A DNA stretch of 27,813 nucleotides, from NCBI GenBank assembly GCA_039683575.1, contig JBDKRC010000116.1, forward strand, positions 1 through 27,813, in the 5' to 3' direction. Both the position numbers and the translations under genes were made by a program. The notes beneath the pieces are model-generated. The model did not search any database. It was not told the origin of the DNA and was given only the letters and a program-made list of their open reading frames with translations. The DNA comes from Armatimonadia bacterium (GTDB lineage: Bacteria; Armatimonadota; Zipacnadia; Zipacnadales; UBA11051). This document shows, piece by piece, positions 3,401 through 20,041 of this stretch; positions within the stretch are counted from its first letter, which is position 1; the number at the start of each line of letters is the position of its first letter.

Positions 3401-3456
3401 CACCATATGGCGTGAAAATCTACGTCTGGCCAGGCACTGCGACCTTCGCGGAGTAG
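448..3456 (+). CDS. Secreted multidomain putative glycoside hydrolase: signal peptide, beta-sandwich module, CBM9-like sugar-binding domain and C-terminal TIM-barrel-like domain
   Basis: 1004-aa ORF from 442; AGGAG at 435-439 favours ATG 448. Signal peptide KWTLLLVVSLSAAAFA. CBM9-like motifs PTVDGSLDD, YDAANWYVAF, RDGAVWEDDSIE, YIELALPF, WRMNFCR. C-terminal RVNGKPFF...GFNAV...HPGLFTYHLGDE...DPNH...GAKGFSYY resembles clan GH-A-like barrels. Confidence 0.65.
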   Translation: MGFAKWTLLLVVSLSAAAFAAPADLPGYLPVFEKPAAWNAGSNYAYHQKPGVNLKAEAGPASPSEHPSLKVTFVGPGLAPKPYERDIYLSLPTRIERRPKTITMSVWGDAMQETLEFHLRDAKGETIVWRTTVDWKGWKQLEFDGAKPGGSWGGDADNQKGLVDLPIVRLAIDIMEGKGATPGPRELAFADLCLTEETAAPGEDPRPALGVGPTSTPPTVDGSLDDPCYAKAARVTELLPSSGSPYQSPHPTDVFVTYDAANWYVAFHCHDDPGHQLTVQKRPRDGAVWEDDSIELMIAPPGDRPPFHHLIINALGDIYDERWTRDAQGEGGRWDGAWNAAGLKAVARPDEQKGGYYIELALPFADVGGVTPAAGQPWRMNFCRMRRMEGGRNAASEASSWGGSQHFQGLDTPGVVWPAVAPLRLEFTPLTWQVGTNALAARLISPDQSARKVRVEVQTYDRNMRPRAQSQELAVPAGQPATLSIPVELTTDDDGGHVRVQAYDLPSGVMLYRNLVKPIAVKHLFELETDAVAYGPEQDFCLERVHLNLPPEALVTSKLTVTWTRRATGKQVYRQVFDYFYADPMCVAVSLSFMPPGVYDIDAALTGAGDKVLERRQWAITRLPQREHKLTPVTKVDLGPNRELRVNGKPFFGLSVHHVRPEEYPTLKRYGFNAVPVWVGPSKDAATSLDRAWQAGLYSELGLCDLGYNWEGFYRDPEGSRQRMRDKVRLNRTHPGLFTYHLGDELANDKLDDFVPLYQEVKQLDPNHLQSMTTGPCWLSADQIRKRATVSDIVSPDLYNVGRGPLTEHPRLCDIYREALSAVPGKALTKVPQVTGYSTVGYRLPTPEELRYMCHADIVHGAKGFSYYKWGAHSSDPGAETGMRHDYRLMSAVRQLNWEITDLSDAILAGQPVTVTRRDDCGKDVELWCREVDGRKYLWALNNSNLPAKASAALPGLSGGEGVEVFYEDRQVKTASGGVLSEELPPYGVKIYVWPGTATFAE

Positions 3457-9169: not shown

Positions 9170-9197
9170 TCTTCGTAGGACGGGCGTCCCGCCCGTC
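9170..9197 (+). repeat. GTAG-type REP-like element, copy 1
   Basis: TCTTC-GTAG-GACGGGCG-TCC-CGCCCGTC: GTAG tetranucleotide followed by an 8-bp perfect hairpin; 27/28 identical to 14000-14027. Confidence 0.7.
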
Positions 9198-9337
9198 TCT
9201 TCCCCTTGGCAGTCGTCATGATGAAGATGAAGAACATGCCCAAATCCTGAGACTCTTCAGACATACTCTTTAGCCCGAATCCCTATAACTCAACCACCTT
9301 AGCAGCCAAACGTCCGTCCCAACTCCCGGGGGGCGCG

Positions 9338-11866
9338 TTGAATCGCACCACTATCACCACCAATTCACCTACCTTCGCTCTGCCGCCTGATCTGCTCCTG
9401 GCGCCTTGGGCCAAGCTGTCCCCGTGCCGCCCTAACGAATACCATCCTTTGCTCTGTCACCTCCTCGACACTGCCGCGGTGATGCACGCCCTCTGGCACC
9501 ACGCCCTGCCGCAGCCCAAGCGCCGCCTGCTCGCGACCCTCCTCGGCGTGAGCGACCACGACGCCTGCCGCTGGCTAACCCTTCTCGCCGCCCTGCACGA
9601 CATCGGCAAGGCCGCGCCGGGCTTTCAGGCCAAGTCCCCCTTGCACCGCCGCCGTCTGCAGCGCCTTGGTCTGCAGTTCCCTCTTGCCGCCGACGCCAAC
9701 CACGTCCAGACTGGCATGGCCGCGCTGAGGTCGTTGCTTTCCGCACTTGCCGTCTCCCCGGCGGTAGCAGTAGCCCTCGCCACCGCCCTCGGCGGTCACC
9801 ACGGCCACACACCCGCCCGCCGCCGCTGCGGCGAACGCTCCCTCGGTGATGCTCACTGGCAGGGCCTCCGCACCGCCCTCGGCCACACCCTCGCCGCCCA
9901 CGTCGGGCTCGAGAGCCGTTCGCTTCCGCCCGGGCTGACCGCCGGTAACCAGCCCCTGCTCGTGCTCATCGCCGCCCTGGCCCGCCTCGCCGACTGGCTG
10001 GCCTCCGACACGGACCACTTCCCGGTGGCTCCGTCAGTCGCTTCCATCACTGAATACGCTGATACTGCCGCAGCGCAAGCGGGGGGAATTGTTCGAGCCA
10101 TGGACTGGATGCAGGTAGCCGCACAGAATGCCGACTTCGCCGACTTGTTCGGCTTTGATCCGAACCCCATGCAGCGCCTGGTGGGCCTCGCCGCAGGAAA
10201 CCTGACTGCCCCCGCGCTCGTGATCCTCGAAGCCCCGACCGGCTCGGGCAAAACCGAGGCCGCCCTGCACCTCGCCCGCTCCTGGGACGCCGCAGGCCAT
10301 CAGAGCGGCTACTACGTCGCCCTCCCCACTCAGGCCACCGCGACCGCCCTGCACGACCGCCTGCAGAGCTACTCTCCTCACGAGTCCGTCAACCTCATCC
10401 ACGCCGCCGCCCCCGGTGCCGGCGTTACCAAGCTCCTCAGCCCCGCCGGCGTCGGCACCCTCGACCAATCCCTCCTCGCTGTTGCCAACGACCGCCAGCC
10501 CTGGGTGCGCCTGCTGGGTCTCGCCAACAAGACGGTCATAATCGACGAAGTCCACGCCTGCGATGCCTACACCACCGGCCTGCTCACTCGCCTGCTCGAG
10601 TGGCTCGCCGCCCTGAACTGCTCAGTCATCATCCTCTCCGCCACCCTCCCGGAGGCCCAGCGCGCGTCCTTGCTCAAGGCCTGGCGCAAGGCCGCGGTCC
10701 CCCTCGCTTCCGCCGCCTACCCTCGCGTCACCATCAGCACCAGTGACGGCACCCAGTGCTGTGAGCTTCCCATCGAAAACCGCCGCCAAGTGGCCCTTCG
10801 TCCCCTGGAAGACGATCCAATGGCCCTCGCCGACCATCTCCGCGACCGCCTCGCCGACGGCGGCTGCGGTGCAGTGATCTGCAATACCGTCGCCCGCGCG
10901 CAGCAGCTATATGTGCACCTGCGGGGCCTGCTTCAGCAATATGGTATTCCCGTCGAACTCTACCACGCGCGTTATCCCGCCTCCGAGCGCCGCCGCCGCG
11001 AGCACGGCGTCATCGCCGGCTTCGGCAAAGACCGGTCCTCCCGTCCCCACCGCGCCGTCCTCGTTGCCACTCAGGTCGTCGAGCAAAGCCTCGACCTCGA
11101 CTTCGACCTCATGGTGAGTGAGCTCGCTCCCCTCGACCTACTCGTCCAGCGCGCCGGCCGCCTGCACCGCCACCCACAGCCACGCCCCGCTGCCCTTGCC
11201 ACTCCCGAACTCGCGCTCCTGATGCCCGCCCGCGACACTTGCGGCCAACCAGTCTTCGGCACCACTGAGCACGTATACCACCCGCACCTCCTGTTGCGCA
11301 CGTGGCTCCTGCTGCAGGGCCGCGCCGCTCTGAACCTCCCAGAAGACACCGCCGCCCTGGTCGAGTCCGTCTACGGCGACGCCGCTACGGGTGACCGCCA
11401 TTGCAGGCCACGCCTCGCTGACACCGCCGCCTCCCTTGCGGCAGAGACTGCCCTTCAGACCCATACCGCCGCTGCCGCCGCTATTCCTGGCCCCGAGTGC
11501 GCCGCCACCCTCTGCGGCGGCCAGCAGGCCCCGGTCCGCTGGCAGGATGCTCCAACCCTTGAGGTCGTCTGCCTCGACGGCACCCTCAGTGACTGCCGCC
11601 TCGGCGACCAGCAACTCGATCTCTCCACCGAGCCTCCTGCGCCCGTCATCCACTCCCTGCGCCGGGATGCCTTCCGCGTCACCGGCCGCGTCTGCGCCGA
11701 CCTCCGCCGCCTCCCGCGCCCCGATTGGTGGAACCATAGCGCCCGCCTCCACGGCCTCGTGCCGGTCTTCCTGAACGCCGACCATACCACTACAACCACA
11801 GAACACATCGTACAACTCGACCCAGACCTCGGCTTCACGATCACCGCCACAGGCTGCGACTCATGA
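9338..11866 (+). CDS. cas3: CRISPR-associated nuclease/helicase Cas3 (type I-E)
   Basis: HD domain (HLLD, LHDIGKA, GHHG, LADWLAS), Walker A APTGSGKTE, ALPT, VGTLDQ, DEVH, LSATLP, ICNTV, ATQVVEQSLDLDFD, QRAGRLHRH. Confidence 0.95.
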   Translation: MNRTTITTNSPTFALPPDLLLAPWAKLSPCRPNEYHPLLCHLLDTAAVMHALWHHALPQPKRRLLATLLGVSDHDACRWLTLLAALHDIGKAAPGFQAKSPLHRRRLQRLGLQFPLAADANHVQTGMAALRSLLSALAVSPAVAVALATALGGHHGHTPARRRCGERSLGDAHWQGLRTALGHTLAAHVGLESRSLPPGLTAGNQPLLVLIAALARLADWLASDTDHFPVAPSVASITEYADTAAAQAGGIVRAMDWMQVAAQNADFADLFGFDPNPMQRLVGLAAGNLTAPALVILEAPTGSGKTEAALHLARSWDAAGHQSGYYVALPTQATATALHDRLQSYSPHESVNLIHAAAPGAGVTKLLSPAGVGTLDQSLLAVANDRQPWVRLLGLANKTVIIDEVHACDAYTTGLLTRLLEWLAALNCSVIILSATLPEAQRASLLKAWRKAAVPLASAAYPRVTISTSDGTQCCELPIENRRQVALRPLEDDPMALADHLRDRLADGGCGAVICNTVARAQQLYVHLRGLLQQYGIPVELYHARYPASERRRREHGVIAGFGKDRSSRPHRAVLVATQVVEQSLDLDFDLMVSELAPLDLLVQRAGRLHRHPQPRPAALATPELALLMPARDTCGQPVFGTTEHVYHPHLLLRTWLLLQGRAALNLPEDTAALVESVYGDAATGDRHCRPRLADTAASLAAETALQTHTAAAAAIPGPECAATLCGGQQAPVRWQDAPTLEVVCLDGTLSDCRLGDQQLDLSTEPPAPVIHSLRRDAFRVTGRVCADLRRLPRPDWWNHSARLHGLVPVFLNADHTTTTTEHIVQLDPDLGFTITATGCDS

Positions 11867-13470
11867 GTATCGGTACGCAACTATTGGAGATGCCTAATCC
11901 CGCCAGCCTCACGGCCGGTATCCGGCCCACCGCGTCATACAACCTCATTGACCGCTCCTGGATTCCCTGCCTCCTCCAGGGCGGCCATGAGGAATCTCTC
12001 AGCCTTACGGAGGTCTTCCGTCGCGCCCCCGAGATCACGGAAATGCTCGATTCGTCGCCGCTAGTCACGATCTCGCTGTACCGCCTGTTGCTCGCCGTCC
12101 TCCACCGCGTCTGCGGCCCAGCCGACGAAGCAGCCTGGGCAAGCCTCTGGCGGCGCGGGCACTTTGACTGCGCCGCAATCGATGGCTACCTGAACATCTG
12201 GCGCCACCGCTTCGACCTCTTCGACGCCGATCGCCCCTTCTGCCAGTGCCCCGGCCTGCCGGAGCGCCTTGCTGCGCCTGTCACGCGTCTCGCCCCCGAA
12301 CTCGCGTCTGGCAACCAGCCTACTCTCTTCGACCACCACCTGGACGCCTCCGCGCCTTCTCTCGCGCCCGCCGCCGCCGCCCGCTGCCTGCTGGCCCACC
12401 AGAGCTTCTGCCTCAGCGGCTGCTGCGGAGACGAGAGCGGGCTCACTGCCGTCCGCTCCGGCCCGCTCGCCCACGCCGCCATCTTCATGGCCACTGGCCG
12501 CAATCTCTTCGAGACCTTACTGCTCAACCTGGTCCCCTGCAATCCGCAGCAGGGCCTCCCGCTACCTGTCCTCACCCATGATGTACCACAGTGGGAGCGC
12601 GACCACCCGCCGACCCACCAAACCCGTCTGCCGGACGGCTATCTCGATTACCTGACCTGGCCTTCCCGGCGCATACTGCTCCTGCCGAATGACGACGCCA
12701 CCGTCTCCCGCGTCATCGTCATGCCCGGCGCCGACTTTCCCGCCGAGGCCACTGTCCGCGATCCCATGCTCGCCTACCATGGCCTTTGCCACGGCGGGCA
12801 CGGCCTCTCAGCCCTTCGTCTCGAGCCGGGTGGTTCATGGTGGCGCGATTGCCTGGCCCTCTTCGCCGCCCGTCGTGGTGCATGGCAGCGTCCCCAGACC
12901 CTCGACTGCCTCGCCTACCGTGCCGACTGTGGCCTCCTCCCACCTGCCTACTGCTACTCTCTCGCCGTCTTCGGTCTCGCCGGGGCGAAGGCCCGGGCCG
13001 ATCACTGGCAACATCATCGCCAGCCCGGGTCCGTGGCCTATCTTGCTGACGATGACCTCGCCGCCGATCTCGAGACCGCCCTTGGTCTCGCCCAGGACAT
13101 CCATCAGGCCCTCACTGCCTCGCTGTGGCAAGCCTCGCAGGCTCTCGCTTTCGGTCCGTCCGGCAGCACCGCGCCCCTGCGTCGCATGGCGAGCGGTCGC
13201 CCTGCCTCGGCTTACTGGCGAGCCCTTGAAATGCCGGCGCGCGCTCTTGTCCACGACCTGCCGGGAGACCTCGCGCACCGGGACAGCGTCCTGCGCAATT
13301 GGCTTCGCACCTGCGAGCGTTTCGCCTGGCAAGAGCTTGAAGGACAACTGCAGGGCCTCCGCCACGAACCCCGCGGCTTGCGGGCTGAAGTCCTCGCCCG
13401 TGACCATCTCGCCCGCGAACTCGGCCGCCTCGCCGCCCCCTGGCTGGAGGTGGCCTCTGAAGCCGTCTAG
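11863..13470 (+). CDS. cas8e: Type I-E Cascade large subunit Cas8e (CasA/Cse1)
   Basis: YNLIDRSWIP, LYRLLLAVL, RFDLFDADRPFCQ, GNQPTLFDH, GRNLFETLLLNL, YLTWPSRRILL, DPM; positioned between cas3 and cse2. An alternative start near 11890 is possible. Confidence 0.9.
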   Translation: MSIGTQLLEMPNPASLTAGIRPTASYNLIDRSWIPCLLQGGHEESLSLTEVFRRAPEITEMLDSSPLVTISLYRLLLAVLHRVCGPADEAAWASLWRRGHFDCAAIDGYLNIWRHRFDLFDADRPFCQCPGLPERLAAPVTRLAPELASGNQPTLFDHHLDASAPSLAPAAAARCLLAHQSFCLSGCCGDESGLTAVRSGPLAHAAIFMATGRNLFETLLLNLVPCNPQQGLPLPVLTHDVPQWERDHPPTHQTRLPDGYLDYLTWPSRRILLLPNDDATVSRVIVMPGADFPAEATVRDPMLAYHGLCHGGHGLSALRLEPGGSWWRDCLALFAARRGAWQRPQTLDCLAYRADCGLLPPAYCYSLAVFGLAGAKARADHWQHHRQPGSVAYLADDDLAADLETALGLAQDIHQALTASLWQASQALAFGPSGSTAPLRRMASGRPASAYWRALEMPARALVHDLPGDLAHRDSVLRNWLRTCERFAWQELEGQLQGLRHEPRGLRAEVLARDHLARELGRLAAPWLEVASEAV

Positions 13471-13969
13471 CCACGACCGCCTCTTCGCCGGGTTTCTGTG
13501 CAAGCTGGTGGAAGCCGGGCAGGCTCATGCGCTGGCAACCTTTTTGCGCGGCCTCGGGCGTCCGCCCGGCGCCGTTCCCGGCATGCTGCGCTGGCTCGGG
13601 CCGTGGACCCTCGACGCCACTCGCCGGGAGCGCGACGCCTGCTTCCTGGTCGCCTCGCTGTTTGCGCTGCACCCGTGCGACATCAGTCGGGGCAACCTCG
13701 GCACGGTCTTCGCGCAACTGCGCGCTCTACGCGGCCCCAGCGAAAGCCTCGAGCGCCGCTTCAGCGCGATACTACGGGCCTCGCACGATGATCTGCCGCT
13801 ACACCTGCGCCGCGTAGTAGGGCTCGCGCGCTCCGCAGGCGTGCCCATCAACTGGGCGCAGCTTCTCAACGACGTAAAGCAATGGGACTACAGAACCCGC
13901 CACGTCCAGCTAGCCTGGGCCCGCGAGTACTGGTCCACCAGTCAGGATGCACCACCAGCTTCGTCGTAG
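13457..13969 (+). CDS. cse2: Type I-E Cascade small subunit Cas11 (CasB/Cse2)
   Basis: C-terminal ~170 aa of the 12689-13969 ORF: LATFLRGLG, LVASLFALH, GNLG, SLERRFSAIL, HLRRVV, PINWAQLLND, WAREYW. Start inferred at CTG 13457 behind GGAGG (13446-13450); start position uncertain. Confidence 0.85.
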   Translation: MKPSSHDRLFAGFLCKLVEAGQAHALATFLRGLGRPPGAVPGMLRWLGPWTLDATRRERDACFLVASLFALHPCDISRGNLGTVFAQLRALRGPSESLERRFSAILRASHDDLPLHLRRVVGLARSAGVPINWAQLLNDVKQWDYRTRHVQLAWAREYWSTSQDAPPASS

Positions 13970-13999
13970 CCGTCTGTGCTGCAGCCGTTTCCGATGGCA

Positions 14000-14064
14000 T
14001 CTTCGTAGGACGGGCGTCTCGCCCGTCGCCGCCGTTCGCCGGGAGCGCGGGCATCCCTGCCCGC
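14000..14064 (+). repeat. REP-like cluster between cse2 and cas7: GTAG REP copy 2 plus a GGAGC-type hairpin
   Basis: 14000-14027 matches 9170-9197 with one loop mismatch. 14041-14064 is GGGAGC-GCGGGCA-TCCC-TGCCCGC. Confidence 0.65.
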
Positions 14065-14196
14065 CTCCGTCGCATCGCGCCCCACCGTCTCTCTATGGGG
14101 CCCATGTACGCCCGACACTCTTGTCGGGCTCTGGCCGACGCAAGCACAACTTCATAGCACCGATCACAGACTGCCTCACTTCTACCCGGGGAGAAG

Positions 14197-15351
14197 ATGA
14201 GCATGGTCGTAGAGCTTCACCTGCTTCAAAACTTCGCGCCATCGTGTCTCAATCGCGACGACACCAACACACCGAAAGACTGCGAGTTCGGCGGCGTACG
14301 CCGGGCACGCCTGTCCAGCCAGTGCCTCAAGCGCGCCATCCGCTGGCATCCCGAGTTCACAGCCATACCAGGCGTGAGCTACGGCCTGCGCACCAAGCGC
14401 CTCGTGGAGAAGCTCGCTGCCGAACTCACCCAGGAAGGCTGTCGTGATGACTGCCTCGACGAGGTAGTGGGCGCCGTAGTCGCCGAGGCGGTTGGGCAAC
14501 TGAGCAGCGACCAGCGCACGCGCGTGCTGGCCTACCTCGGGCGTGACGAGATCACCCGCCTGCGCAACCTGATCCTCGAATCCTGGGAAAGCCTCGTCAG
14601 GGCGGCCCGCCCCGGCACAGGCGCCCGCCGCGGCAAAGCCCTCCAGGACGCCGCGAGGAAAGCCGCCTCCTCCTTCACCCCCGGCACCCGTGCCGCCGAC
14701 ATCGCCCTCTATGGACGGATGATCGCTGAGAACACCCACCTCAACATCGAGGCTGCCTGCCAGGTCGCCCACGCCCTGTCCACCCACCGCGTCACGATGG
14801 AAATGGACTTCTTCGCCGCCGTGGACGACCTCAAGCCGGCCGACCGCCCCGGTGCCGAGATGATCGGCGCCATCGAGTTCAATAGCGCCTGCTTCTACCG
14901 CTACTCGCTGGTCTCTGTCACGCAACTCGCGCAGAACCTCGGAGGAGACCACGAGTTGACCGCTGAGGTGCTGGGCGGCTTCCTGCGCGCCTCCATTGCC
15001 GCTATACCCTCCGGCAAGCAGAACTCGATGGCCGCGAGCAACCCCCCAAGCCTCGTACTGGCCGTCGTGCGCGGCTGGGGGATGCCCTGGTCGCTGGTCA
15101 ACGCCTTCGAGACCCCGGTGCGGGTCTCGGAGCACGACCGGCGCGGCCTCGTGCGGCAGTCCGTGGTTGCGCTGGACCGCTATTTTGGCCGTCTGTCGCG
15201 CATGTACGGCGAGGATGGCATCATCGCCCGGCCCGCTTGCTGGCTGGAGGATGCCGAGATCGAGTTCCTCAGCGACCAGCGCGTCGCCAGCGTGGCCGAG
15301 GTGGTGGAGACGGTGCAGGACGCAGCCTGCTGTCTGGCCGGAGTGACCTGA
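14197..15351 (+). CDS. cas7: Type I-E Cascade backbone subunit Cas7 (CasC/Cse4)
   Basis: ELHLLQNFAPSCLNRDDTNTPK, FGGVRRARLSSQCLKRAIR, DIALYGRM, ACQVAHALSTH, DFFAAVDD, EFNSACFYRY, PSGKQNSMA, SLVNAFETPV. Confidence 0.96.
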   Translation: MSMVVELHLLQNFAPSCLNRDDTNTPKDCEFGGVRRARLSSQCLKRAIRWHPEFTAIPGVSYGLRTKRLVEKLAAELTQEGCRDDCLDEVVGAVVAEAVGQLSSDQRTRVLAYLGRDEITRLRNLILESWESLVRAARPGTGARRGKALQDAARKAASSFTPGTRAADIALYGRMIAENTHLNIEAACQVAHALSTHRVTMEMDFFAAVDDLKPADRPGAEMIGAIEFNSACFYRYSLVSVTQLAQNLGGDHELTAEVLGGFLRASIAAIPSGKQNSMAASNPPSLVLAVVRGWGMPWSLVNAFETPVRVSEHDRRGLVRQSVVALDRYFGRLSRMYGEDGIIARPACWLEDAEIEFLSDQRVASVAEVVETVQDAACCLAGVT

Positions 15352-16061
15352 TGCCGACACTTCTGCTCCGGCTGGCCGGGCCGCTGCAATCATGGGGGAT
15401 CGGCAGTCGTTTCAGCTTCCGCGATACCGCCCTCGAACCGACCAAGAGCGGCGTCCTGGGGCTTCTGTGCGCCGCTGCTGACATTCCGCGCGAAGATGAC
15501 GAGACCCTCGCGCAGCTTACTGAACTGCAGATGGGAGTGCGGGTTGACCGCGAGGGGCGGCTGGTGCAGGACTTCCACACCGTCGGCGGCGGGCAGGTCG
15601 GCGGGCGGCCCCACGGCGTCGCCCGCGCCAACGGCGGCAAGCCCACCACCGTCCTGTCGCGCCGCGAATACCTCGCCGACGCCGACTTCCTGGTGGGCCT
15701 GCAGCACACCGACTGCAAACTGCTAACTCGCCTCGACGAGGCCCTGCAGCGCCCTGTGTGGCCGCTCTGCCTGGGCCGCCACGGCTTCGTCCCGGCCCTG
15801 CCGCCCCGAATAGGCGTAGTCGAGCAGGAACTGGCCGAGGCCCTGGGGCAATGGCCATGGCGCCCCCGTCAGGGTGAGACACCTTCCGCGAACGGGCTGC
15901 GACTGGTGCTGGAGACCGAGGAGCCGGCTGCCGAGACGCGGTGCGACGTCCCCGTGTCCTTCCGCCATGACGCCCGTAGATTCCGGCTCAGGCGGGTGCA
16001 TACCACCTGGATTCGGCTGCGCGCGCATACGCGCGCGGGGGAGATCAACCTCGGCTCATGA
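15351..16061 (+). CDS. cas5: Type I-E Cascade subunit Cas5 (CasD)
   Basis: MPTLLLRLAGPLQSWG...RDTALEPTKSGVLGLLCAA, DFHTV, REYLADADF, PLCLGR; TGATG coupling with the cas7 stop. Confidence 0.95.
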   Translation: MPTLLLRLAGPLQSWGIGSRFSFRDTALEPTKSGVLGLLCAAADIPREDDETLAQLTELQMGVRVDREGRLVQDFHTVGGGQVGGRPHGVARANGGKPTTVLSRREYLADADFLVGLQHTDCKLLTRLDEALQRPVWPLCLGRHGFVPALPPRIGVVEQELAEALGQWPWRPRQGETPSANGLRLVLETEEPAAETRCDVPVSFRHDARRFRLRRVHTTWIRLRAHTRAGEINLGS

Positions 16062-16672
16062 GCCTGTACCTCACACGGTTGGTCCTGAACCCCGAATCGC
16101 CTCGGGTGCAGGCGGAGCTGATGCGGCCCTACCAGCTCCACCGCACGCTTTGGCGGGCTTTCGGCGAAAACGCGTCTGGGCGGCTCCTGTACCGTCTGGA
16201 GACCGACGCGGCTGTCCCCGTGCTGCTTGTGCAGTCGCCCTGGAGCGGGGATTGGGCGCACCTGTCGCGGGTGGGCTATCTGCACGAGCCGCACGAACTG
16301 CTGTTGGAGAACCCCGCGGAGAAGCTCTTCACGCCCCGGTTCGAGCCGGGGCAGGTGCTGCGGTTCCGGCTGCGGGCGAACCCCACATACAAGGTAGGCA
16401 GCCGGCGGCTAGGGCACCTGAACCCACAGTGGCAAACGGCCTGGCTGGCCCGCAAAGGGGCTCAGAGCGGCTTTTCGGTGGTGGAGGCGGTGGGCAGGGG
16501 CGAGGGCTTCCAAGCGCTGCAGAAAGGCCCCCAGCGCCTGCGAATGTACAGCGTTCTGTTCGAGGGGCTGCTGCAAGTGCAGGAGGCGGAAGGCATGGCT
16601 GAGGCGATCCGCAACGGAATCGGGAGCGGGAAGGGCTTTGGGTTCGGGCTGCTGTCGGTCAAGAGCCCCTGA
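16058..16672 (+). CDS. cas6e: Type I-E crRNA-processing endoribonuclease Cas6e (CasE/Cse3)
   Basis: YLTRLVL, YQLHRTL, LLYRLE, LLVQS, FRLRANP, VLFEGLL and the C-terminal glycine loop GIGSGKGFGFGLLS; ATGA overlap with cas5. Confidence 0.95.
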   Translation: MSLYLTRLVLNPESPRVQAELMRPYQLHRTLWRAFGENASGRLLYRLETDAAVPVLLVQSPWSGDWAHLSRVGYLHEPHELLLENPAEKLFTPRFEPGQVLRFRLRANPTYKVGSRRLGHLNPQWQTAWLARKGAQSGFSVVEAVGRGEGFQALQKGPQRLRMYSVLFEGLLQVQEAEGMAEAIRNGIGSGKGFGFGLLSVKSP

Positions 16673-16696
16673 GCGCGCGCGTGAGAGATAGAGAGA

Positions 16697-16830
16697 GATT
16701 CTTCGCTTCGCTCAGAATGACAACAGGTTTGCTCGGAATGACAACAGGTTTGCTCAGAATGACAATAGGGTTGCTCAGAATGACAATAGGGTTGCTCGAG
16801 ATGACAGCAGGGTCGCTCGGAATGCCATAG
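16697..16830. repeat. REP-like half-element followed by a tandem array of six 21-bp units (consensus GCTCRGAATGACAAYAGGKTT)
   Basis: Units start at 16710, 16731, 16752, 16773, 16794 and 16815; the last is partial and degenerate. 16697-16724 is the exact reverse complement of 19932-19959. Confidence 0.9.
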
Positions 16831-16850
16831 AGATCGATAGTATTGTACAA

Positions 16851-16940
16851 GTGTGCCCCGCGCTTATGGGGGTGAACCGAAGAAAAGGCGGCCTTTGAGG
16901 ACGGCGCCTTCCTCGCTTCCCCATGTGCGGGGCATTTGTG
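16851..16940 (+). CRISPR. Type I-E mini-array: one full 29-nt repeat, one ~32-nt spacer and one degenerate terminal repeat
   Basis: Repeat GTGTGCCCCGCGCTTATGGGGGTGAACCG (16851-16879) follows the E. coli-type I-E pattern GTGTTCCCCGCG....GGGGATAAACCG. A second hairpin CCCC-ATGTGC-GGGG (16919-16932) has its GGGG exactly 61 nt after that of the first repeat. It lies 178 bp downstream of cas6e. Confidence 0.75.
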
Positions 16941-17107
16941 CTCTTGAGGTACACCGCGTGAGATGTTGGGAGGTTGAGTGTCTCAAGGAGGGGAAATATG
17001 TGCTCCAAATCGGGGTCCAATGCCACAGAAAAAGTTGACCGATGTAACGATTCGGGGCCAAAATCGAGTTCTGCTGCAACCTTGGAAAAGGGGGCCGATG
17101 ATAGCCA

Positions 17108-19873
17108 ATGGTGAAGCAATGGCGCATCTTGATAGTGCTCATCGGTATGGTAGTCGTAACCTCTGCTGTGGCAAAGCCTTTCCAGGGTCCGTTTGTGCTC
17201 AACGACGGCCTCACCTTTTACCTGGTCAACCCCACCGGCGCCAGCTTTGATCTCAGTCTGAAATATACCAATCCATGGCGGAAAGACGCGGACCGCCCGA
17301 TGCTCATCCGCGTTTTCGATCCGGATGAGCAGCCGTGCCTGAGGTTTGAGGCCGAAGGGCAGAAGACCGAGAAGCCGGGGGAGGAAGAGCTAAAGACCCG
17401 GATTGAAGGCTCCGGGCCGGGGATATACCAGATTGTCATGCATGGTGGCATGGCTGCGCCGTGGGCGCAGACCAGCGTCTCGTTGAAGACTGAGCCAGAG
17501 ATGGAATTCGGGGTCTTCGGGCACCTGCAGTGGCTCACGGGGCTCAAGGACCAGTTTGCAGACAGTTACGTCTACCTGCCGCCCGGGCTGAAGAAGCTGC
17601 CGGTCGAGGCAGCGGACACTCTGGACAAACTGGCCCTACTGGACGAAGCAGGGCGGACGAAGCTGGAACTGGGCGAGGGAAAGATGAAGGGCGAGGTCGA
17701 TCTGCCCCGCGGTCAGGCGGACCCGACCGGCGGAGAGCATGTGTGGCGGCTGCAGGCGACGGGGCCGTACTACCGTCTGGACTTCAAGGGGTACCCGATC
17801 ATCCTGTGCCCCAGCGAAGCGGCGGCACGCGCCATCAAGGCTTCAGTGGACGTAATGCCGGACGGGACCATCTGCTTCCACAAGCACCAGGTGGCGGCGT
17901 GGAAGCTCCTGCAGCAGTACAAGCAGCGTCCCGCGGCGGACTATGCGGTCAAAGTGGTGCCGCTGGAGCAGGTGGCGGACAAGCTCATGAAGGAGCCCAA
18001 CCGCAACCAACTGCTGTTTGGGTCCTACGGGGTCATGGCCAGCCTGCCGGCGGTTCTGGCCGAGCAGAACCTCGATCGGAAGAGCCCGTGGTTCGGGTCC
18101 ATCTGGCGGTGGAAAGACGACCAAGGCAAGCCCCGGGCCGGCAACCCGCTGGCAGACTACGACCGCGCGGGCGAGGAAGCATATGCGGCGCTGAATAAGG
18201 ATTTGGCGGCGCTGTACTGGATGAAGGCGGACTTCAACCCATACTACCACAGCCCGCAGCTACTCAACCGAATCATCGTGGGGGCCCTGCTGGACCAGAT
18301 GGTGATGCGGGAGGGCGAGTTCTGCAATGTCAGCAACACCTACTACTGGGGCATCCACGCCTTCACGCTGGAGCACTCGCAGAGCGGGGCATTCTCCCTG
18401 GTGTGGCGGGATACCCCGGAGGAGGTGAGGAGAGTGTGGCAGGCCGGGCAGCAGAAGCTTACTGACCGGTTCCTGTATGGGACAGTGGGAGGGTGCACCA
18501 ACCAGTGGACGATCCTCCTGTCGGGGTTGTGGCGGTACTATGAGGGCTCTGGAGACGAGGCATACAAGAAGGCGATACTGCGAAACGCGCATTGGCTGAC
18601 GAGCGGAGTGTATGGTACGGGACAGCGCCCTGCCGGGTACATGACTGAGGCGTTGGGGCCGGATGCGACGTACAACGGCATCACCGGGCATTCGCTGTCG
18701 GAGCTCTACCATCACAGTGGGGATGCCGAGATACTGCAGGCCGAGCGGAAGTCGTACAACCTCTTCAACCACACGATTGCCCCGGAGCCGAATGGGACTT
18801 GGCTGGGCAGCAGCGGGTACTGTCACCGGACACCGGGGGACTGGGTTAGCCCGCAGTATGGCGCCGGGCTGGGGCCAATGTCGGACAAGCTGCCGGAGGC
18901 AGGATTGCGCTATCCGGGGCATGGAACCTGGGCCTACGCGGAGCCGTTCACTGATGAGACTGGCCGCAAAGAGGCCGAAGAGCAGCTTGCCAGGGTTATG
19001 AAGTACTATGGGGCGGACTGGCTGGCGCTGGAGCCGGCAAACTACGGGCGGGCGAGCGGGGCCTTCGACATCAGCTTCGCGAACTGGCGGATCTTTGAGA
19101 ACAGGTACCTGCCCGGAAAGCTGCCGTGTGTGGCCGAGGAGCGGTTTGCGCGCAATTTCGGGGACGAATTCATGTGCGTACGCCGGCCGAAGTACTATGC
19201 CTTCCTATTTGCGGGAGTGGATTACCAGCAGTGGCAGGTGGGGAGCAGGCCGCATGATTACACGGAGCAGTACCCGCACAATGACGGGCTCTGCATGTTC
19301 TGGTCGCCGGAGTTCGGATCGTCGCTGCTGACGAAGAACTGGGGCGCGGCGCGAGCGAATACGCTGTTGGTGAAGGTGGGGGAAGGCAAGGTGCTGTGGC
19401 CGTGGTACCTGGATGTGAAGAGCAAGCTGGACACAGAAGAGGGCACGGCGACACTGACGGGGACGATCCATGACACGCCGCTGAGCTATGAGCGGGCGTA
19501 CAGGTTCGTGGACGAGGGGGTGGAGTGCACGCTGACGGTGAAGGCCGCGGCGGATTTCCGGTGTGAGAGCATGGCGGAGTGCCTCCCGTACCCGCTGGAG
19601 GACATCAAGCCGGGGATGAAGGTGACACTGGCAGGGGCTGACGGCAAGGAAGTGGCGTCAGGAAGCGCTGCGCGTGAGATACGGTTCAGGAATGCGGAGG
19701 GGAAAGGGCATACGGTGGCGCTGGCGGAGGCGCGAGCGGTAGAACTGGGCCACGAGGGGAGCGTGGACCACTACGGCGGCAAGCACGTGTACGGGCGAGC
19801 GCTGGTGCAGTTGCCACGGGAGTGGAAAGCGGGGGAGGCGGTTGTGGTGAGGTATTTGGTGAGGCCGGAGTAA
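17108..19873 (+). CDS. Large secreted hypothetical protein, possibly an alpha/alpha-toroid carbohydrate-active enzyme
   Basis: 921-aa ORF with signal peptide KQWRILIVLIGMVVVTSAVA. Helical repeats LWRYYEGSGDEAYKK and LSELYHHSGDAEIL are followed by a beta-rich C-terminus. Confidence 0.7.
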   Translation: MVKQWRILIVLIGMVVVTSAVAKPFQGPFVLNDGLTFYLVNPTGASFDLSLKYTNPWRKDADRPMLIRVFDPDEQPCLRFEAEGQKTEKPGEEELKTRIEGSGPGIYQIVMHGGMAAPWAQTSVSLKTEPEMEFGVFGHLQWLTGLKDQFADSYVYLPPGLKKLPVEAADTLDKLALLDEAGRTKLELGEGKMKGEVDLPRGQADPTGGEHVWRLQATGPYYRLDFKGYPIILCPSEAAARAIKASVDVMPDGTICFHKHQVAAWKLLQQYKQRPAADYAVKVVPLEQVADKLMKEPNRNQLLFGSYGVMASLPAVLAEQNLDRKSPWFGSIWRWKDDQGKPRAGNPLADYDRAGEEAYAALNKDLAALYWMKADFNPYYHSPQLLNRIIVGALLDQMVMREGEFCNVSNTYYWGIHAFTLEHSQSGAFSLVWRDTPEEVRRVWQAGQQKLTDRFLYGTVGGCTNQWTILLSGLWRYYEGSGDEAYKKAILRNAHWLTSGVYGTGQRPAGYMTEALGPDATYNGITGHSLSELYHHSGDAEILQAERKSYNLFNHTIAPEPNGTWLGSSGYCHRTPGDWVSPQYGAGLGPMSDKLPEAGLRYPGHGTWAYAEPFTDETGRKEAEEQLARVMKYYGADWLALEPANYGRASGAFDISFANWRIFENRYLPGKLPCVAEERFARNFGDEFMCVRRPKYYAFLFAGVDYQQWQVGSRPHDYTEQYPHNDGLCMFWSPEFGSSLLTKNWGAARANTLLVKVGEGKVLWPWYLDVKSKLDTEEGTATLTGTIHDTPLSYERAYRFVDEGVECTLTVKAAADFRCESMAECLPYPLEDIKPGMKVTLAGADGKEVASGSAAREIRFRNAEGKGHTVALAEARAVELGHEGSVDHYGGKHVYGRALVQLPREWKAGEAVVVRYLVRPE

Positions 19874-19931: not shown

Positions 19932-20041
19932 GTTGTCATTCTGAGCGAAGCGAAGAATCCCCCGGCGGGGGGGGAGAGATCCTTCGTCGTAAACGGTGCT
20001 CCTCAGGATGACAAGAGGGAACGGCGCTCCTTAGGATGACA
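19932..20041. repeat. Palindromic REP-like element (TGTCATTCTGAGCGAAGCGAAGAATC family) with a duplicated right arm
   Basis: Left arm 19934-19959 can pair with GATCCTTCG...CTCAGGATGACA (to 20013). AACGGYGCTCCTYAGGATGACA occurs twice (19992-20013 and 20020-20041). Confidence 0.75.

Follow-up and report, generated by a model that had tools for sequence, protein, structure and literature searches.

The window analyzed here is an entire 27.8-kb contig (C116) of the MAG G000, which consists of 352 contigs and is 96.4% complete. Positions 9338-16672 carry a complete type I-E interference operon in the order cas3-cse1-cse2-cas7-cas5-cas6e, and all six effector genes, each on the + strand, were full length as judged by Pfam and NCBIfam matches over the cut-offs. 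Full-length cas3 (9338-11866) encodes an HD nuclease, a helicase and a C-terminal domain (Pfam Cas3_HD, 2.4e-44, with Cas3-like_C_2, DEAD and Cas3_C; NCBIfam cas3_core) and is followed by cse1/cas8e (11863-13470; Pfam CRISPR_Cse1, 1e-93; TIGR02547) and by cse2/cas11e (13466-13969; PF09485, 2.8e-30 at 13529-13933; TIGR02548), whose start codon is not fixed, the frame being open without stops. The remaining genes are cas7e (14197-15351; Pfam Cas_CT1975, 3.3e-109; TIGR01869), cas5e (15237-16061 for the ORF as listed, with the domain starting at about residue 41; Pfam Cas_Cas5d, 3.8e-42; TIGR01868) and cas6e (16058-16672; Pfam PF08798, 2.3e-46). Alignment of Cas6e to 2y8w/1wj9 demonstrated retention of a Tyr and a His aligned with those of T. 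thermophilus Cse3, together with the Gly-rich loop, in all four members of the lineage described below. The operon neighbours are ordinary chromosomal genes encoding an FHA-GAF histidine kinase, a ferredoxin oxidoreductase of the pyruvate/2-oxoacid family, an AMP-binding enzyme, a methyltransferase and a glycosyltransferase. No transposase-type or Tn7-like transposition genes were found among the window ORFs by domain search, and none was common to the four loci of the lineage.

A repeat-spacer-repeat unit is located on the + strand at 16851-16940, 178 nt after full-length cas6e. Repeat 1 (16851-16879) is a type I-E-format 29-mer, GTGTGCCCCGCGCTTATGGGGGTGAACCG, which ends in the predicted 8-nt crRNA 5' handle GTGAACCG (16872-16879). 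It is followed by a 32-nt guide (spacer), AAGAAAAGGCGGCCTTTGAGGACGGCGCCTTC (16880-16911), and by a degenerate repeat 2, CTCGCTTCCCCATGTGCGGGGCATTTGTG (16912-16940). The GGGG runs of the two repeats begin at 16868 and 16929, 61 nt apart, and the interval 16872-16932 is 61 nt long. The original prediction had described a 29-nt I-E-like repeat, a spacer and a second hairpin (CCCC-N6-GGGG) with GGGG arms exactly 61 nt apart, and these coordinates were confirmed. Hairpins of the form CCCC-N4-8-GGGG are rare in G000, ending at 1018 of 12.45 million strand positions (8.2e-5 per position), and the presence of one in exact register is therefore not attributable to chance. The format of repeat 1 is that of the canonical 29-nt repeats found with a 61-nt period in long arrays of relatives, one of which (L021) has 33 repeats. 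Its own stem is weak, with four G-C pairs and one G-U pair (-9.7 kcal/mol versus -12.8 kcal/mol for the canonical repeat of a relative). With respect to the second element, which had been described as a strongly diverged hairpin, the hairpin was present but direct comparison with repeat 1 gave no detectable similarity (local alignment score 10, P=0.77; 2000 shuffles), and only the reverse complement of repeat 2 was similar to repeat 1 (score 20, P=0.0065; 2000 shuffles).

The leader side of the unit is filled (16695-16827, + strand) by one copy of a dispersed 30-nt REP-like element whose 3' half has been expanded to a 21-nt tandem of 5.5 copies. Two sigma-70-like -35/-10 matches lie inside this filler, and a short A+T-rich stretch separates the tandem from repeat 1. 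The 30-nt element itself (16695-16724) occurs in 133 copies at ≤5 mismatches in G000, often as inverted pairs, and is very deep in wastewater and sludge contigs, where it is found in many differing contexts. A 921-aa ORF without Pfam or NCBIfam family (17108-19873) lies directly 3' of the unit and is absent from the other three loci; an inverted copy of the REP-like element follows it at 19932-19961. A second dispersed palindromic repeat, with 45 copies at ≤4 mismatches, is present upstream of cas3 (9171-9198) and within an unusual 228-nt gap between cse2 and cas7 (13999-14027). A possible third and more decayed repeat was observed at 16973-17001 (to 17005), with GGGG at 16990-16993, 61 nt after 16929, and with 12 of 15 bases matching the 3' part of repeat 2. 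It was not seen in the relatives on alignment of the four loci.

An Rfam search of the unit returned no family above noise. Two candidate ORFs, a plus-strand ORF of 10 codons from the repeat ATG and a minus-strand ORF (16864-17214) running through the guide, were both rejected, as their start and stop codons were not conserved and relatives carry indels beside the guide. A coding reading of the guide was also rejected; variable sites were spread 5/4/3 over the three codon positions by hand count, and thus no coding signature was apparent.

No match to Cas1 (PF01867) was obtained anywhere in G000, and the same model detected I-E cas1 directly after or beside cas6e in 11 of 15 relatives with a Cas6e match. 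I-E Cas2 (PF09707) also gave no match in G000; this is a weak negative since the control was positive in only 1 of 14 known genomes. The adjacency of cas1-cas2 to cas6e that is typical of type I-E is therefore lacking at the window locus. Similarly, the usual array, in which identical palindromic 29-nt repeats separate spacers of 32-33 nt, is replaced here by one near-canonical and one degenerate repeat. Repeat 1 was unique in G000 even at 7 mismatches, the sole other match being unrelated, and two array scans of G000 detected no other CRISPR array, only tandem arrays of REP-like repeats.

Conservation in related genomes

The same unit was found directly after cas6e and on the same strand in three relatives, two of which (G002 and G003) belong to the same genus as G000 and one (G004) to another genus of the same family. 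The four genomes carrying the unit, two of them closely related to each other, are all MAGs. The distance from cas6e ranged from 43 to 178 nt over the four loci. Four Cas6e-positive relatives lacked an adjacent cas1; three of these carried the unit, and in the fourth, G016, the contig ends 421 nt after cas6e. Like G000, G002 had no cas1 at all, and the cas1 genes of G003 and G004 lay on separate contigs as parts of other systems. When 401 genomes of the phylum were scanned with a 16-mer and the next 32 nt then compared with the guide, the unit was identified in G000 and G002-G004, and the 46 other matches examined reached ≤18/32. A 20-base consensus allowing ≤2 mismatches gave four exact matches in 67 genomes of the order, with 2-mismatch matches in three other genomes and two control matches, and a covariance model placed the unit in 4 of the 67. 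The same four order genomes were thus identified by all three tests, with the unit present once per genome. Cas6e relatives at 96%, 76% and 74% identity were present in a large protein collection (P0002, P0003 and P0004). Protein-to-DNA scans with Cas6e of genome-contig and metagenome-contig collections found no close relative, and repeat-pattern scans gave two unrelated loci in the genome contigs and none in the metagenome contigs. In the canonical I-E array of another genome of the phylum (G105; L054, 1257-1543, minus strand), a single 32-nt spacer was observed three times at 122-nt spacing.

Conservation was limited to ATGGGGGTGAACCG of repeat 1, the guide and the TTCCC..GCG part of repeat 2, beginning at the G run and fading in repeat 2. 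The ATGGGGGTGAACCG segment was (nearly) invariant in the four genomes, reading AGGGGGGTGAACCC in G002, and the 8-nt handle was identical in three of four, with C as the last base in G002. Guide identity to G000 was 25/32 in G003, 24/32 in G002 and 23/32 in G004, and the spacer is therefore conserved in related genomes; the six pairwise values ranged from 21 to 29 of 32. Twenty of the 32 positions were invariant among the four sequences, with variation at positions 6, 8, 12, 17, 20, 22, 23, 24, 28 and 30-32, such that the guide is constrained out to position 29, beyond the seed. It is a general property of type I crRNA that every sixth base does not pair with the target. Unpaired sixth bases are also stated for I-F1 crRNA in PMC10120712. 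In the guide, four of the five sixth positions varied compared with 8 of the 27 others, a difference that is marginal with four sequences (hypergeometric P=0.053), and positions 3, 9, 15, 21 and 27 showed no variation (0/5). The pattern of variation fits a guide constrained by a target, in that the sixth positions are those left unpaired, but is only suggestive.

This retention is to be set against the divergence of everything around it. The Cas proteins of the four loci were approximately 41-61% identical, and four-fold degenerate sites of cas7 were 0.36-0.56 identical, which is about the compositional expectation and indicates synonymous saturation. The DNA flanking the unit could not be aligned between the four loci, and the neighbour genes differed, only the cas genes being common. 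In a Cas6e tree the four operons formed one side of a branch (support 89/95) versus 12 canonical loci, and in a Cas5 tree one side of a branch (support 97/97) versus 11; the canonical loci were cas1-bearing I-E systems with long arrays, both trees were unrooted, and the Cas6e branches were long. Taken together, the Cas divergence, saturated sites, unalignable flanks, differing neighbours and trees identify the four operons as an old, separate I-E lineage. Decay of a remnant would appear as neutral drift between relatives. What was found instead was a guide retained at 21-29/32 and a handle that was (nearly) invariant, with four-fold sites and flanks randomised. No relative of the lineage had a long array at this site. 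Judged from these comparisons of sequence, purifying selection acts on the unit across both genera. The original view that the unit is a candidate dedicated guide, kept for function rather than being debris, is borne out by a handle and guide found after cas6e in four genomes with saturated synonymous sites.

All Cascade genes were intact in the four loci, and Cas3 was kept in at least two of the four. The Cas3 of G004 (L066, 5912-7090) is an HD-only protein of 392 aa; a search of the rest of that genome for a Cas3 helicase part of I-E type was negative, its best match belonging to another CRISPR system.

Collapse of a longer array during assembly had been named as a possible origin of the single unit. 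Logan contigs from two other (wastewater) sequencing runs traversed the single unit with no branch at the repeat. A 629-nt Logan contig covered 16757-17386 with 19 differences and one gap, and a 151-nt contig covered 16847-16997 with three differences. A contig from another study (run X4), in which the 21-nt tandem was four copies shorter, reached into repeat 1; runs X4 and X5 had no cover over 16837-17141. One unit each was therefore present in four independent assemblies and in the contigs of two further runs.

Pairing between the flanks of the guide

The minimum free energy fold of the G000 unit is one long hairpin (-45 to -51 kcal/mol, z = -3.9) that joins the 5' half of repeat 1 to the 3' half of repeat 2. 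The 5' arm of this long-range stem comprises 16845-16850 and 16853-16863 (16845-16863 overall) and so overlaps the 5' half of repeat 1; its partner within repeat 2 is the 3' arm at 16925-16935. Further in, ATGGGGG of repeat 1 (16866-16872) pairs with TCCCCAT at 16918-16924, where the TTCCCC 5' arm of repeat 2 is conserved. The G000 flank duplex had an energy of -23.6 kcal/mol versus -10.7 kcal/mol for shuffles, and forcing two local hairpins in G000 carried a cost of approximately 16 kcal/mol. For comparison, canonical repeat-spacer-repeat units of a relative folded at -38.7 +/- 3.4 kcal/mol (n=31), less stable than the G000 unit.

Pairing of the flanks was observed in all four genomes, with arm sequences that differed, and whole-unit folds ranged from -37.6 to -51.6 kcal/mol. 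Cognate flank duplexes had energies of -21.8 to -25.8 kcal/mol compared with -7 to -12 kcal/mol for shuffles, with ≤1 in 1000 shuffles as low. The cognate mean was -23.7 kcal/mol versus -15.4 kcal/mol for non-cognate pairings, and the cognate assignment was the best of 24 permutations. The arms of G004, for example, paired at -23.5 kcal/mol with each other versus -8.8 to -16.7 kcal/mol with the arms of the other genomes. In a model-guided alignment 56 of 60 cells paired and 4 of 15 pairs changed on both sides, figures that are biased towards pairing, as the alignment was fitted to the structure. A hairpin within the guide alone was no better than shuffles (z = -0.5).

Local hairpins were weak across the four genomes, with 3-5 pairs. 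The local stem of repeat 2 had three to four C-G pairs in G000 and G002, was longer in G003 and was not present in G004, in which the 3' arm of repeat 2 covaried with the 5' arm of repeat 1 and not with its own local partner. The proposal of two local stems in a 61-nt register thus held for G000 and G002 only; the spacing was off by two in G003, and the second hairpin was missing in G004. Consequently it is the composite stem that is the lineage-wide feature. From these fold models, the conserved structure is predicted to be a covarying, flank-to-flank long stem that encloses the handle and guide, and not two local Cas6e-type hairpins. No T-run after the stem was seen by eye in G002 or G004, and no terminator was called in G000.

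Searches for a target

The search of the host genome that had been advised from the outset did not yield a target, the best match to the guide in G000 being 24/32, and relaxed searches also gave nothing. Seed matches in G000 numbered 7 versus approximately 8 expected as estimated from base composition; three had AAG or AGG flanks, and by eye these appeared to fall within coding sequence or at its end, with none at a promoter. In G002-G004 and the whole order, no match with ≤2 mismatches at the conserved positions was found beyond chance or control level. In none of the four cas loci was there a PAM-flanked seed or a match of ≥11/14 with an intact seed, and this covers the sequence upstream of cas3 and of cse1. 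A phage collection contained no guide match, plasmids gave chance-level matches only, and no chromosomal attachment-site match for the guide was found in G000. One exact 16-base match, combining the handle end with the first 13 guide bases, was located elsewhere in G000 (C65, about position 3413, minus strand) and was taken as chance; it has a repeat-type CCG flank, adjoins a dispersed repeat and has no repeat stem beside it.

Five guide scans of IMG/VR were performed, of which four (with G000, consensus and G004 patterns) gave no matches and one gave a weak match to the G003/G002 pattern. On the matching contig (L083, 3141-3163) all 19 specified bases of G003/G002 guide positions 1-23 are present with ATG directly upstream, and the surrounding 289-aa ORF, in whose conserved N-terminal motif the site falls, belongs to a 7-member family without Pfam or PHROG match. 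We regard this site as a weak lead and did not accept it as the target: approximately 0.4 chance matches were estimated per scan over the five scans, only 17 of 27 non-sixth positions match the G000 guide by hand count, and the motif variants of the other six family members match neither the G000 nor the G004 guide. The contig has no protein in common with G000.

Interpretation of the unit

With a probability of roughly 0.6, we consider the unit to be a selectively maintained, hard-wired crRNA gene that serves as the sole guide of an I-E lineage without adaptation. A guide loaded into Cascade is the best reading because the 5' handle is retained exactly, the Cascade genes are intact and Cas6e has its catalytic residues in all four genomes, and conservation of the fixed guide points to a dedicated target. 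The unit would be transcribed with the cas operon or from the promoter-like sites in the repeat-derived leader, and the composite stem would take the place of the separate hairpins that the two repeats form in a normal array. Cas6e would then cut 3' of the G run to release the GUGAACCG handle, with the 3' end held in the stem; as the local Cas6e-type hairpins are weak or missing, this processing step is one that we infer. The RNA could be loaded into Cascade and direct it, together with Cas3 where complete, to one conserved sequence. The nature of that sequence is the weakest point of the proposal. Since it is absent from the assembled genomes, a target on a mobile element or in unassembled DNA would be more likely than a host promoter. 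Conservation to family depth nevertheless argues for a host-side role, because a mobile element should easily escape a guide that does not change.

This last argument also favours regulation in the manner of CreR/CreA or mini-arrays, by partial complementarity to a host promoter (of the lineage's own cas genes, a toxin or another defence gene) and repression without cutting, since long-term conservation is more easily understood for a target in the host than for one in a parasite. That G004 has lost the helicase part of Cas3 is likewise in keeping with a binding-only role, and on these two grounds a host-directed binding-only function stays alive, although we judge it unlikely. The arrangement resembles the CreR-like pattern, in which both repeats are degenerate, the 5' handle is kept in the first and the stem side in the second, as outlined in 10.1101/2023.03.10.532045, and mini-arrays are given in PMC10120712 as present in about 19% of bacterial I-E loci and conserved among relatives. 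The original prediction had raised regulation of this type, but the target it calls for did not appear: the four cas loci contained no PAM-flanked seed or ≥11/14 match, the seed matches of G000 were at the estimated chance level (7 versus about 8), and the three with AAG or AGG flanks were apparently coding. Furthermore, the guide is constrained to position 29 and not in its seed alone, there is no canonical array for the unit to compete with, and its position is that of an array and not the cas3-cas8 gap. With no target in the four genomes, cas promoters, phages or plasmids, and a single weak IMG/VR match, a CreR/CreA-type self-regulator is not supported.

A conserved structured RNA or DNA palindrome that no longer guides, acting as a 3' stabiliser or insulator of the cas operon or as a decoy or assembly scaffold for Cas6e or Cascade, would account for the strongest conserved structural signal, the long stem, which at -45 to -51 kcal/mol in G000 is above the stability of canonical units, and for the failure of every search to find a target. 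It leaves unexplained an exact 8-nt Cascade handle and a 32-nt apical sequence with 20 invariant positions that alone folds like shuffles, and the lack of a T-run in G002 and G004 or of a called terminator in G000, as well as the intact Cascade genes, also speak against it; we hold it to be improbable. Finally, arrays usually end in a degenerate repeat, and the unit could be the neutral last remnant of an array that shrank after cas1-cas2 deletion, perhaps mediated by the REP-like leader repeats and with the possible third repeat 61 nt further on as another trace, or else a product of assembly collapse. Conservation of the unit in four genomes with randomised synonymous sites and flanks, its single occurrence in four independent assemblies and two further runs, and the absence of the third repeat from relatives mean that on the sequence evidence this neutral explanation is largely refuted, and we give it very little credence.

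Several known systems share features with the hard-wired crRNA gene that we favour. Canonical type I-E systems of the E. coli and T. thermophilus type have the order cas3-cse1-cse2-cas7-cas5-cas6e, a 29-nt repeat, an 8-nt handle ending in ACCG, a 32-nt spacer and a 61-nt period. The window locus agrees with these in gene order, repeat format, handle ending, spacer size and period but differs in having no cas1-cas2, one spacer, repeats that are self-complementary over only 3-5 pairs and long Cas6e branches. CRISPR-associated transposons employ dedicated, fixed and atypical guides with unusual repeats and a type I effector without acquisition genes. The fixed guide, unusual repeats and missing acquisition genes are a likeness to the window locus, which, in contrast, has no transposition genes, keeps Cas3 in at least two of four loci and has no chromosomal guide match. 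Closest in form are the CreR/CreA mini-arrays, a single spacer between two degenerate repeats, as characterized in 10.1101/2023.03.10.532045 and PMC10120712. By those accounts they share with the unit a single spacer, retention of the handle-side half of the first and stem-side half of the second repeat, conservation among related cas loci and a tendency to be missed by array finders; a degenerate repeat-spacer-repeat with the 5' handle in its first repeat is what we found, and the handle was unchanged in three of four genomes. In the same accounts, mini-arrays occur alongside an ordinary array and genes for adaptation, are found mostly between cas genes, for instance in the cas3-cas8 gap, and match a PAM-flanked promoter over 10-15 nt, whereas the unit is the only array of a cas1/cas2-less lineage, occupies the array position after cas6e and is constrained over approximately 29 nt, and no cas or toxin promoter of the four loci contains a PAM-flanked partial match to it. 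The covarying long flank stem further sets the unit apart from the mini-arrays as they are described there. No such cas1-less fixed-guide system was found in the literature, within the main accounts of the two mini-array studies; the supplementary mini-array lists of 10.1101/2023.03.10.532045 and PMC10120712 may include such loci.

A broader evolutionary reading, which we advance tentatively and at somewhat short of even odds, is that an I-E lineage has turned from adaptive to innate. One germ-line guide would have been held over family-level divergence in a permuted repeat, whose single processing stem is built from the 3' half of one repeat together with the 5' half of the following one, and Cascade, Cas6e and mostly Cas3 would have been kept for fixed control of, or defence against, one conserved DNA sequence. 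Known single-spacer mini-arrays are regulators added to otherwise normal CRISPR systems; here the system has no memory other than its mini-array, whose guide was retained while the Cas proteins diverged to approximately 41-61% identity. Array finders and promoter-matching mini-array searches would both miss systems of this kind. If the unit is a guide, it represents a natural type I effector domesticated for one fixed target with Cas3 retained, and, if true, a compact, naturally occurring layout of a single-guide type I-E transcript in which one composite stem replaces two repeat hairpins. The concrete question that it raises is which 32-nt sequence has mattered for so long to these bacteria.
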